From the NCBI GenBank assembly GCA_044356455.1, contig JBIKWF010000005.1:1917-65916 (forward strand): a DNA stretch of 64,000 nt, given 5' to 3'. A program made the position numbers. Each line of letters begins with the position of its first letter. Position 1 is the stretch's first letter. This DNA comes from Bdellovibrionota bacterium (GTDB lineage Bacteria; Bdellovibrionota_C; UBA2361; JBGSMV01). Below, in pieces: positions 57,001 to 60,000 of this stretch.

Positions 57001-60000
57001 AGTCTGACCTTACGTGGACTCAGCGCCTTAAGCTCGGCTACTTGCATTTGCGTCACGGGCAACATGGAAGCCTTTTGACCAAGATTGCTGTGGGTCAAAG
57101 CCTGTTGATGGTCGGAGTGGGACTCACGCAATATTTGGGGCAGCATATTCCGCAGCTACTTGAGACCGTGCGGGGGGCACCTGTTTTGGGGCAAGCCTTT
57201 CAATTTGCAGAGCAGCCCCTCACGAAAATCGGAGCAACGCTGATACTGCTTGGTGCTTTGGATCTCATTCCCAATGCCATCATTTCGTGGCAGAGCCGGA
57301 AGCTAAGTAAGTACCTAACGAACAAAGCAGAGATAGCAGAGAGCAAAAATTGAGATAGTGATGTTCTCGCAGAGCCTTCAGAGGTGAAAAAACACCGACC
57401 TATTTTGCTTCTTGAGAACCAGTCGCTCATGTTACCTCGGACGCTGCCAGTGAGGTCGAGGGGTGCCATGTACCTCCCATCGCCCCCCAACTCAGGTGCG
57501 CAATTTTGGTAAGGGCCTGATTTTACTGGCGTAAAATGTGCGCCAGATCCTCAAAGCATACCTAAATACCTACGATCATTAGAGGTGCAGAATTCTTTCA
57601 CATGAGGTGAAGGAAGGTAGTCGACATCGGAAGTCTGTTTTATGGGTGTCATCTCCTTCGGGAGCAACATCGCCGCGCTTCGAGCTCTTCGCCGTCTTAA
57701 CGACAGCTCGAATGATCTTGCGCGCACTTCTGAAAAATTATCGTCAGGTCAAAGAATTAACCGTGCGAGCGACGACGCGGCTTCACTCGCAATATCTTCT
57801 TCGCTTCGAAAAGATGTCAACGTGTACTCACAGGCCCTTCGAAATGGAGGCGACGCGATTTCGGCCTTGAGCATTGTTGAGGGCAGTCTCACGCAGTTAA
57901 GTTCAGTACTTATGCGCCTCAAGGAGCTTGCCACTCAGGCCTCCAATGGAACGTTCTCCCTAACGCAGCGCCTCTCCCTCGACGAGGAAGGTGAGCAGTT
58001 AACCCTAGAGTTTAATCGTATCGTGGGGTCCACTGAATTTAACGGAATTAACCTTCTCAACGGTCTTTTTGGGCGGATGAATGTGCAGTTGGGGTATGGA
58101 ACAAATGGCTCAATTGGATTCGGGGTAGGGCAGGAGCTTGATCGCAATAAGGGCACGGGTTTTCAGGATGGGTCCCAGTTCGTGGCAGCTTCAACAGTTC
58201 CTACAGATCCCGATCTCGCGGATCTCAACGGAGATGGAAACTTAGATCTGATAGTAAGGGACAGTACCTCTATTCGCGTTAGTATGGGTAATGGAGATGG
58301 AACGTTTCGCTCTCAGACGAGCTATTCCTTCTCCGAGGTCTCAGCACTTGGAGCCGTGGGCGACTTAAATGGAGACGGAATTCTTGATCTTGTCACAGGT
58401 GGAGCAACGCTAGGGGTGGGGGTCCGCTATGGGGTAGGAGATGGGACCTTTGGCGCAGAGACTCGTATTGCGGTGGGGGGAAATGTCAGCGGACAGGTAA
58501 TTCTTGGTGATTTTAATGGAGACGGCACTCTTGATGTAGCAGGTTCTAGTACAAGTTCCTCTTCGGTATTTATGGCGCAATCTAATGGGGCGGGGGGCTA
58601 CTCCCTAAGCTCGTACGCAGCGGGGGCGAATATTCGCTCACTGACCGTGGGGAATTTGAATTCAGACGGGTTTGACGACCTTCTCATAAAGGACAGCTCC
58701 GGAGACTTGAGGATTGGCTTGGGGAAAAGTGGGTCGGGGCTCACCGCAGGTTCTACTATCGATGTTACCTCAACTAACTCGGGAACGATTGAAGTGGCAG
58801 ACTTTAATTTTGATGGGATTCTGGATGTGGTGGCAAGTGGAGGTACTTCGCTTAATGTGCTTCTTGGAAATGGTGACGGCACCTTTCAGACTGCGACGAA
58901 TTACTCTGTGGGAAGCACCCAGGGAATTTCTACTCGAGATATGAATGGTGACGGCATTCCAGATCTTACTTACGCGACGCTCGGCTCTATACGTTTTCTT
59001 CGTGGTATCGGGGATGGAAGCTTTGCGACTGAAACTAGTTTCACTGCTACTCTTGCTGCGGGGAGATTCGCCGTAGGAGATATTAACGGAGACGGAGTGC
59101 CTGATTTGCTGGGTGCGGACGCTTCAGCCCCCGATAGTATTCAGACGGCCCTTGCTACTACCACGACAACAACTTCGATTGAGCGCTTCAATCTCACCAC
59201 TCAGCAAAGTGCAAGGGATGCGCTCTCTCAGATTTCAAGTGCACTGGATCGGCTTAGCCGAGAGCTTGGGGCTATTGGCGGCGCCCAGAGCCGTATCAAC
59301 GTGGCTCTTGGCGCGATTGCCGCAAGCAGGGAAAATAGCGCGGCGGCGGAGAGCCGAATCATGAGCGCTGACGTGGCAATCGAGTCGGCAAATATGATTC
59401 GCCTCAAGATTCTCCAAGAGGCGGGCGCCGCTGTTCTTGGCCAGGCAAATACTCAGCCCTCATTGGCACTTACGCTACTTTCCTCTACCCGCTAGGGATC
59501 TGTCCCGTAAAGATTCCTCCCTCTCCCTGTTGTGGTGGCAACGGGACACACTCCTAGCCCGCCCCTTGGATACCTGCGCTTACAAGGCTATACTGGTGGG
59601 CCCATGTCAATGCAACCTCAACCAGACCCGGCGCCACAGCGGCAACGTCGTTCCGATTTAGATGGAATTGATGAATCTGATCCGAGGTATCGCATATCGA
59701 GTGCTACCACGGACGCTTGCCTTTGCTTGTTCAATGGCTTGAGGCCGCCCCTTCAGCAGCAACTGCTCGAGCAGCGCAAGGACCGCACGCGTACACTTCA
59801 GGGCCTTTTGGATGGCCTCGGTGATGAATCGCCGCCCTTGAACGCAACTCGCTCGTTAGTTCTTGCCATAGGTGGAGATACGCAAGTTTTCATTGAGGGG
59901 CTAGACTCCAAAGCCGAGATCGTTCCGTTTGTGGCAGTGGAGCTCCCGCTATCGCCTGATGCTAAAAGGTCTCTTGCAGAGCTTCGCCTGGGGATTTTCT

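Follow-up and report, generated by a model that had tools for sequence, protein, structure and literature searches.

Can a flagellin gene that has no other flagellar gene beside it, and whose product carries an FG-GAP β-propeller between its two flagellin ends, still encode a subunit of the flagellar filament? The question is raised by a stretch of 64,000 nucleotides from a Bdellovibrionota bacterium (assembly GCA_044356455.1, contig JBIKWF010000005.1, positions 1,917 to 65,916), hereafter called the window, which contains two such genes. The one studied here, copy 2, and its paralogue, copy 1, probably both encode filament subunits that leave the cell by flagellar type III export and display a Ca2+-binding, possibly lectin-like propeller.

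The ends of copy 2 are those of a flagellin. In Pfam searches, Flagellin_N (PF00669) matched residues 8–141 (E 5.8e-35; 120.8 bits versus a cut-off of 26.6) and Flagellin_C (PF00700) residues 529–613 of 617 (E 1.1e-14; 54.9 bits versus 23), while FG-GAP_3 (PF13517) matched seven stretches (E 3e-43). These matches are far beyond chance. FG-GAP repeats were the only insert family among the Pfam matches, which included no peptidase or other catalytic domain. The flagellin models of NCBIfam also matched both ends (E 1e-40 to 1e-52, 130–169 bits), and more than 50 solved filament flagellins were matched by sequence, the best with an E of 1e-37.

An AlphaFold2 model of copy 2, built on a 45-sequence alignment of its family, had a mean predicted local distance difference test score (pLDDT) of 86.4 and a predicted template modelling score (pTM) of 0.77. 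It places helices at residues 6–34, 45–101 and 107–130, a single long C-terminal helix at residues 521–616, and 29 β-strands within residues 146–510. Its low-confidence parts are residues 1–5 and 38–41; within residues 190–510, most ten-residue blocks have a pLDDT of about 80–95, with dips to 70–79. In Foldseek searches of the PDB, the helices matched those of the cryo-EM flagellar filaments 7sn4, 9n59, 9gnz, 9au6 and 1ucu with E values of about 1e-12 to 1e-14. The best matches to the middle of the protein (about residues 165–510) were fungal GlcNAc lectins, namely AAL2 (4tqj, 4tqm) and PVL/PAL (2bwr, 5mb4), with E values of 1e-10 to 1e-12, TM scores of 0.56–0.59 and root-mean-square deviations of 4–6 Å; the FG-GAP propeller of the Tc toxin component TcB matched as well. 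The likeness to PVL/AAL2-type lectins was also detected by sequence alone (E 6e-6). As modelled, the outer domain is a closed seven-bladed FG-GAP propeller. By all the sequence and fold criteria applied, apart from the NCBIfam subfamily cut-offs discussed below, copy 2 is a member of the flagellin family.

Each of the seven blades bears a D/N-x-N-x-D-G-x-x-D loop, within motifs at residues 192–202, 239–249, 288–298, 336–346, 385–395, 431–441 and 478–488, and the aspartates of this loop are invariant across the 45 aligned family members. Loops of the D-x-N-x-D-G type are the Ca2+-binding loops of the FG-GAP family, to which the propellers of integrin-alpha and PVL belong, and those of copy 2 are therefore predicted to bind Ca2+. 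The propeller is possibly lectin-like as well, given a likeness at the level of the fold together with a weak sequence similarity. Propellers 38–41% identical to that of copy 2 occur in two proteins with SLH domains (P0009 and P0010). The SLH domain is a cell-wall anchor, so the propeller module appears to be used for surface display elsewhere too.

Copy 2 belongs to a sizeable family. Among the best 120 matches in a search of 5.8 billion proteins, more than 100 were full-length proteins of 600–690 residues with the same three-part architecture, 36–48% identical to copy 2 over at least 94% of its length, and in most cases at least 97%. Only a few carry names, which read "VCBS repeat-containing" or "FG-GAP-like repeat-containing" protein, and these come from metagenome-assembled genomes (MAGs) of Deltaproteobacteria or Pirellulales; JGI lists several members of the family under "flagellin-like hook-associated protein FlgL". 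When one genome per GTDB species was scanned with the guidance of a profile, the matches listed included at least 12 strong ones (E <1e-80 over most of the query) and at least 3 weaker ones, for which the contig breaks off within the gene. Of these 15, 14 lie in MAGs whose label is Bdellovibrionales, Bdellovibrionota or simply "bacterium"; the remaining one is on a 3-kb contig in a Moraniibacteriota bin. Carrier genomes may hold many copies, with at least seven each in the MAGs JAUIIO and CAYOAK, and tandem arrays of two, three and four FG-GAP flagellins were found in loci L003, L006 and L014, respectively.

In a neighbour-joining tree calculated from D0 and D1 alone, a single clade of 19 sequences holds all 18 complete FG-GAP flagellins, and the nearest sequences outside it are ordinary flagellins of about 286 residues from the same MAG lineages. 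D0 and D1 also rank with the best-conserved regions when the 45 members of the family are aligned. The sole intruder in the clade is a 680-residue Bdellovibrionales flagellin (L022, 371–2410, + strand) whose middle matches PD40, a WD40-like propeller family (E 1.3e-13); either this flagellin scaffold has exchanged its propeller for one of a different type, or the divergence of the domain has been extreme. Ordinary and FG-GAP flagellins occur together. Among the loci fetched from JAUIIO there are four ordinary flagellins besides the FG-GAP copies, and the 247-kb contig L095 holds an FG-GAP flagellin at a distance of 2.4 kb from two paired ordinary flagellins of 286 residues, which share 80% identity with the ordinary ones of JAUIIO. 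This coexistence in related MAGs argues against a lineage without flagella.

The preliminary description of this DNA had reported a second FG-GAP-propeller flagellin paralogue of the same architecture, in which the ends and the blade scaffold are shared while the loops between the blades differ, and had taken this as the pattern of a diversifying exposed surface. The structural part of this account was borne out. Both end peptides and all seven motifs that it cited are present in the translation of copy 2, Pfam finds the same architecture in both copies, and the two proteins, whose genes are 14.9 kb apart, align from end to end with 37% identity (E 6e-93). The identity is 47–55% in D0 and D1 and 60% in the seven 9-residue Ca-loop motifs, but falls to 22% in what remains of the propeller. 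Relaxed constraint alone would, though, also leave the scaffold conserved and the loops variable, and at 37% identity the copies are too diverged for a meaningful ratio of nonsynonymous to synonymous substitution rates (dN/dS) to be calculated between them.

A close strain (L086), 96.2% identical in nucleotide sequence to window positions 57983..64000, allowed selection to be estimated for residues 115–617 of copy 2. Over this range, dN/dS was 0.12 at a dS of 0.32; by region it was 0.14 for the propeller and 0.05 for C-terminal D1/D0 (residues 511–617), and the sampled part of N-terminal D1 (residues 115–145) showed no amino-acid change, N-terminal D0 lying outside the comparison. These ratios indicate that copy 2 is functional and under purifying selection, and with a value of 0.14 positive selection on the propeller finds no support. 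The differences between the strains are concentrated in a mosaic tract that runs from the end of blade 5 through blades 6 and 7 and the linker into the beginning of C-terminal D1. Within the tract, 129 of 465 sites differ (28%), as against 15 of 1044 (1.4%) in the remaining gene, and the flanking DNA is 97–100% identical. In 73 codons of the tract the differences are all synonymous, and in 27 they alter the encoded amino acid, a pattern that points to the import of an already diverged allele segment and not to an adaptive burst. The tract thus supports diversification of the propeller by recombination, not by positive selection. The central regions of enterobacterial fliC genes likewise diversify by recombination. 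Gene conversion from copy 1 was considered as the source of the tract and rejected, as neither copy 1 nor any fetched paralogue matched it closely. A milder divergent patch (60233–60832, 88–91% identity to L086) lies in the gene downstream of copy 2; both this patch and the tract, which is 72% identical, look like recombination imports.

To place the isolation of the two genes in context, we grouped the open reading frames (ORFs) from 85 loci into clusters and used Pfam to identify those clusters that recurred, scoring a flagellin as having a flagellar neighbour if at least one of FliD, FlgK, FliW, FliS, FlaG, CsrA and FlgM lay within 10 kb. Among the loci fetched with the family profile, such a neighbour was present at 32 of the 48 that do not belong to the Bdellovibrionota-type set. 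It was found at none of 19 Bdellovibrionota-type loci, most of which hold ordinary flagellins of about 280 residues, and at none of 17 FG-GAP flagellin loci; five further FG-GAP contexts also had no flagellar machinery genes. The 19 loci include tandem pairs of 277–303-residue flagellins in Halobacteriovorax marinus, a flagellated predator, and in Bacteriovoracaceae MAGs. What looked like large flagellins in the Halobacteriovorax and Bacteriovoracaceae loci proved to be two genes in tandem, each for about 280 residues. Scattered flagellin genes are the rule in the Bdellovibrionota-type lineage, in keeping with the six flagellin genes of B. bacteriovorus (PMC2791853), and the lack of flagellar neighbours is therefore no evidence of a role outside the flagellum.

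Promoter sequences offer a suggestive sign that the family is under sigma-28-type regulation. When the 150 nucleotides upstream of each gene were scored against TAAA-N14-16-GCCGATAA, 20 FG-GAP flagellin genes outscored 133 other ORFs of the same loci (Mann-Whitney p 2e-6). Clear sigma-28-type sites of the form TAAx-N16-GCCGATTA precede the genes in L007 and L012, and good sites were found in L011 and L013 as well. A scan for sigma-70 promoters and terminators returned 3 promoter-like sites, with 2.9 expected, and no terminators.

From the observed architecture and fold, the conserved core under purifying selection, the family membership, the coexistence with canonical flagellins and the dispersal of the genes, we infer the following course of export, polymerisation, binding and regulation. 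The disordered N-terminus and the D0 segments would allow the protein to be secreted unfolded by the flagellar type III export apparatus. Beneath the filament cap, the D0/D1 helices would polymerise into the usual tube of 11 protofilaments, and the 365-residue middle would fold outside the cell into the seven-bladed FG-GAP propeller, on the exposed surface of the filament, where up to seven Ca2+-binding loops would stabilise it. The propeller would most likely serve in binding, as a lectin-like or adhesive domain, rather than in catalysis. Paralogues with a common polymerising core and different propeller loops could provide alternative or mixed filament surfaces, and these in turn might confer different specificities or an escape from phages and grazers.

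The geometry of the filament lattice appears to permit such an arrangement. By a rough estimate, 11 protofilaments leave each subunit about 52 × 50 Å at a radius of 85–90 Å, approximately the face of a seven-bladed propeller; a filament about 18–24 nm across is therefore predicted and would be feasible. Such a width lies in the range already known: the filament of Salmonella is 24 nm wide (PMC6248924), and a flagellin of 793 residues from Geovibrio (9au6) polymerises into a 24-nm filament (PMC11532411). Since larger outer domains polymerise, the size of copy 2 is no obstacle.

Several observations weigh against a filament subunit displaying such a propeller. Besides the two flagellins, Pfam recognised no flagellar family in about 50 larger ORFs across the window. 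The preliminary description had made much of the absence of adjoining flagellar genes; this holds for the ORFs scanned, but the survey of related loci makes it a trait of the lineage and not a peculiarity of these two genes. Copy 2 falls below every NCBIfam flagellin cut-off, its best scores being 169–178 bits versus cut-offs of 332–436. The shortfall arises because these models describe whole subfamilies and have no counterpart to the insert, so that only the ends align; it excludes copy 2 from the named subfamilies, not from the flagellins generally. The candidate sigma-28-type promoter of copy 2 is no better a match than those of many background ORFs, and the −10-like element of copy 1 is a weak match without a good −35 element. 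The flagellum of Bdellovibrio is sheathed, and a sheath would hide an adhesive outer domain; if the present lineages also have one, the functional reading would change. In the literature, we found no experimental study of any member of the family. A last point concerns the origin of the DNA. An RlmD/RumA-type 23S rRNA methyltransferase is encoded at 24088–25272 (+ strand), and its best named matches, at 51–58% identity, are mostly from Candidatus Uhrbacteria and other Patescibacteria, with one from Oligoflexia. The best relatives of the copy 2 flagellin come from Bdellovibrionota MAGs, and a Patescibacteria-like methyltransferase is odd in such company.

Among the other explanations, the one nearest to a filament subunit is that copy 2 is exported by the flagellar system but has no part in propulsion, forming instead a distal or proximal segment, a separate adhesive fibre or a soluble Ca2+-dependent lectin. 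The short canonical flagellins in the same genomes could build the propulsive filament, the propeller resembles lectins, and carrier genomes have many paralogues; moreover, B. bacteriovorus makes its filament from several similar flagellin species (PMC2791853). The conservation of D0 and D1, which matches that in the canonical flagellins of the same genomes, is what would be expected if the two kinds co-polymerise, and this makes the non-propulsive role rather unlikely in our view, although the two readings overlap and sequence cannot separate them. Improbable, by comparison, is a protein of bacteria with no flagellar export apparatus, whose flagellin-like ends serve another polymer or secretion route, for example of the T2SSF-like or Tad kind. 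To its credit are the lack of flagellar genes among the window ORFs scanned, a membrane protein with two T2SSF-like halves 1.7 kb downstream of copy 2, the Tad genes at 1564..9246, and one other locus at which a T2SSE ATPase lies 2.4 kb from a pair of FG-GAP flagellins. Yet T2SSF, Tad and T2SSE genes do not recur beside FG-GAP flagellins, either at the 17 loci or in the five further contexts, ordinary flagellins of these lineages are equally isolated from flagellar genes, and canonical flagellins are found in the carrier genomes. It is also difficult to see why full-length D0 termini should be kept by strong purifying selection if they served neither type III export nor D0/D1 packing.

[quoted passage not shown] We consider this very improbable. 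The FlgL model TIGR02550 matches residues 9–124 only (E 1e-17 to 1e-18) and scores 66.5 bits versus a cut-off of 127.2, far below the scores of the flagellin models, which are obtained at both ends; by this comparison copy 2 is a flagellin, not an FlgL-like protein. Besides, Flagellin_C exceeds its cut-off in copy 2, the D0/D1 tree puts the family beside the ordinary flagellins, and copy numbers that reach seven or more per genome are unlike a single-copy junction protein. That copy 2 is a decaying or non-functional duplicate is hardly credible: its place among rare or orphan genes and its weak promoter match might suggest as much, but neither the frame of 617 codons nor any of the seven Ca-loop motifs is disrupted, the structure is modelled with confidence, and a dN/dS of 0.12 at a dS of 0.32 is not that of a gene in decay.

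A further idea may be put forward, which we regard as doubtful. The flagellar filaments of uncultured Bdellovibrionota-like bacteria, or segments of them, would be coated with thousands of Ca2+-dependent lectin propellers, making the flagellum a multivalent organ for the recognition of prey or surface glycans. Its specificities could be exchanged through sets of paralogues (two here, at least seven in some MAGs), recombination within the propeller and the swapping of propellers, of which the PD40 flagellin inside the clade may be an instance.

The features of the two genes and their neighbourhood are collected in the following table.

Features of the two FG-GAP-propeller flagellin genes and of the genes near copy 2 (window coordinates)
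Feature	Position	Strand	Description and basis
Copy 2, FG-GAP-propeller flagellin gene	57642..59495	+	617 residues plus stop, ATG start, uninterrupted frame; Pfam, AlphaFold
Copy 2, N-terminal D0 and D1 helices	57642..58076	+	Residues 1–145; Flagellin_N and model
Copy 2, D1 β-hairpin and linker (about residues 146–190), then propeller to residue 510	58077..59171	+	Pfam, model, Foldseek
Copy 2, C-terminal D1 and D0 helix	59172..59492	+	Residues 511–617; Flagellin_C and model
Mosaic tract in copy 2	58821..59285	+	465 bp, residues 394–548; comparison with L086
Weak candidate sigma-28-type promoter of copy 2	57552..57578	+	CAAA-N15-TACGATCA; agrees with the consensus at 8 of 12 positions
Copy 1, paralogous FG-GAP-propeller flagellin	40889..42760	+	623 residues, GTG start; same Pfam architecture
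Sigma-28-like −10 element of copy 1	40824..40831	+	GCCGATCT; 58 nucleotides upstream, 6 of 8 positions
Upstream neighbour of copy 2	55941..57353	+	470 residues, rare family; no Pfam or NCBIfam match
Downstream neighbour of copy 2	59604..61037	+	477 residues, near-orphan
T2SSF-like membrane protein	61170..62705	−	511 residues; 1.7 kb downstream of copy 2

The preliminary description had also drawn attention to large orphan genes on either side of the flagellins and had staked its view on such neighbours recurring beside flagellins of this kind in other genomes. The survey found none that recurs. All-against-all clustering of the ORFs revealed no recurrent neighbour family across the 17 FG-GAP loci, tblastn of all window ORFs found no homologue of the orphans in any of 84 loci, and no FG-GAP locus fetched from outside the window's own strain group has a homologue of the flanking genes. 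The neighbours, not being conserved, should therefore not be read as partners of the flagellin. The only other clusters shared by several loci consist of an antisense ORF inside the 5′ part of the flagellin genes (40834–41322, − strand, in the window, with equivalents in 8 other loci), which we rejected as a gene because it is an artefact mirroring the conserved flagellin N-terminus.

As to the orphans themselves, the description is partly right. In a search of 5.8 billion proteins, the downstream neighbour of copy 2 has just two homologues, which come from near-identical strains and are 95% and 88% identical to it; it adjoins a flagellin only in the close strain L086, with a dN/dS of 0.24. 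The ORF at 38804..40618 has no Pfam or NCBIfam match, no dedicated search of protein databases for its homologues having been made. The upstream neighbour of copy 2, by contrast, belongs to a small and rare family. Among 1.84 billion proteins it has 11 representatives at E ≤0.001, ten besides its own fragment, and seven of them align at 24–36% identity over most of the protein. The family consists of proteins of about 400 residues. The gene of one homologue (32% identity) has RNA polymerase subunit N on one side and a HAD hydrolase on the other, in a context that includes ribosomal proteins L13 and S9 and looks archaeal (L090 and L091 are the loci of these relatives); neither of the two contexts inspected contains a flagellin. 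The orphans show no mutual similarity, so that we rejected the idea that they are paralogues of each other.

The membrane protein downstream of copy 2, taken earlier for a double T2SS-F protein, does show two halves that resemble other proteins of the window, residues 216–321 a TadC-like one (E 6e-6) and residues 393–510 a TadB-like one (E 6e-10). The T2SSF assignment is weakly supported, its match to that Pfam family (E 1.3e-3) being below the cut-off. The gene stands alone, far from any ATPase, and is near-identical in L086 (dS 0.005).

Some genes do recur beside flagellins in other loci. A lytic transglycosylase of the SLT family directly adjoins flagellin genes in L095 (4025–11854), L021, L072, L045, L061 and L008, and may be a flagellum-associated peptidoglycan hydrolase; in L021 and L095 it is followed, in the same arrangement, by a CDP-alcohol phosphatidyltransferase. 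Two proteins of about 570 residues that are similar by blastp are encoded next to FG-GAP flagellins or 7 kb from them (L004, 11885–13591, − strand; L002, 9045–10775, + strand). The protein from L002 matches Glyco_trans_1_2 and TPR, which we take to be the architecture of the flagellin glycosyltransferase FlmG, and the two are candidate flagellin-modifying enzymes by these similarities; the window has no homologue of them. In a MAG labelled Pirellulales (L092, 183–11198), an FG-GAP flagellin lies less than 10 kb from the coupling protein TrwB/TraG and the relaxase TrwC, which hints either that some copies reside on mobile elements or that the contig is misbinned.

Elsewhere in the window, positions 1564–13170 (+ strand) hold a cluster of the Tad/Flp pilus type, with a ParA/TadZ-like ATPase, RcpC/CpaB, a T2SSE ATPase, two T2SSF proteins and a TadG-like protein, followed by a response-regulator protein and a hybrid histidine kinase; among the ORFs scanned, no secretin gene was recognised. 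Positions 30612–37439 (− strand) hold four clustered genes, for DUF1302 (E 6e-169) and DUF1329 (E 5e-155) proteins, a BNR/Ycf48-like propeller and an MMPL/RND transporter, a conserved set that is typical of bacteria with an outer membrane. At 47335–48789 (− strand), the permease of an ABC-3 metal transporter is fused to the C-terminal domain of an iron-dependent repressor (Fe_dep_repr_C) within an ABC transporter operon of the Zn/Mn type.

Flagellin outer domains are highly diverse, and a function can be assigned to few of them; the main exception is flagellinolysin with its metallopeptidase. If the proposed role of copy 2 is true, a lectin-type Ca2+-binding propeller would be a second clear functional module that is displayed in thousands on the filament. 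The family is conserved, comprises well over 100 sequence clusters and includes carriers with many paralogues, which are probably relatives of bacterial predators, for which contact with prey matters. It would offer structural biology a new architecture of the filament surface and ecology a marker gene family, and it would connect motility with adhesion or recognition in a way that can be tested. The analysis also corrects a tempting misreading, since an isolated flagellin gene is no evidence of a non-flagellar role where flagellins are scattered.

Copy 2 differs from known flagellins in its outer domain. Salmonella FliC, the H7 flagellin of E. coli (7sn4) and that of Geovibrio thiophilus (9au6) have the same D0/D1 core, with an outer domain between the halves of D1; in copy 2, this position is taken by a single seven-bladed FG-GAP propeller with Ca2+-type loops, about 320–365 residues long according to whether the D1 hairpin and the linker are included. 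A clustering of 16,948 predicted flagellin outer domains, published in 2024, gave 682 structural clusters (PMC11532411); its main text mentions no β-propeller, although the architecture may be listed unremarked in its supplementary tables. Our literature search found no paper on a flagellin with an outer domain of the FG-GAP, VCBS or any other β-propeller type.

The flagellins of Bdellovibrio have about 280 residues and no outer domain, and we found no literature report of an FG-GAP flagellin in this genus. B. bacteriovorus has six flagellin genes (fliC1-6) and a filament of several flagellin species (PMC2791853), and so provides a precedent for the use of multiple flagellins. The presence of several flagellin paralogues in one genome is a likeness to the present family, and in the Bdellovibrionota-type loci fetched here, flagellin genes lie away from fliD, fliS and flgK.

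Flagellinolysin carries a functional metallopeptidase in the hypervariable region of the flagellin and displays it on assembled flagella (PMC5595980, PMC7643111). Copy 2 resembles it in having a recognisable domain of another family in the same position, but the domain is a peptidase there and a set of FG-GAP repeats here. With the giant flagellins of marine gammaproteobacteria (PMC6248924), copy 2 shares an enlarged outer region and the expectation of a thicker filament. Those proteins exceed 1000 residues and have duplicated "DE" regions without similarity to other families, whereas copy 2 has 617 residues and a known repeat family. Copy 2 is thus neither a giant flagellin, being shorter than 1000 residues, nor a flagellinolysin, having no peptidase. 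The fungal lectins PVL, PAL and AAL2 and the propeller family of integrin-alpha share the Ca2+-type D-x-N-x-D-G loops with copy 2; PVL, PAL and AAL2 are stand-alone soluble lectins, whereas the propeller of copy 2 is inserted in a flagellin.

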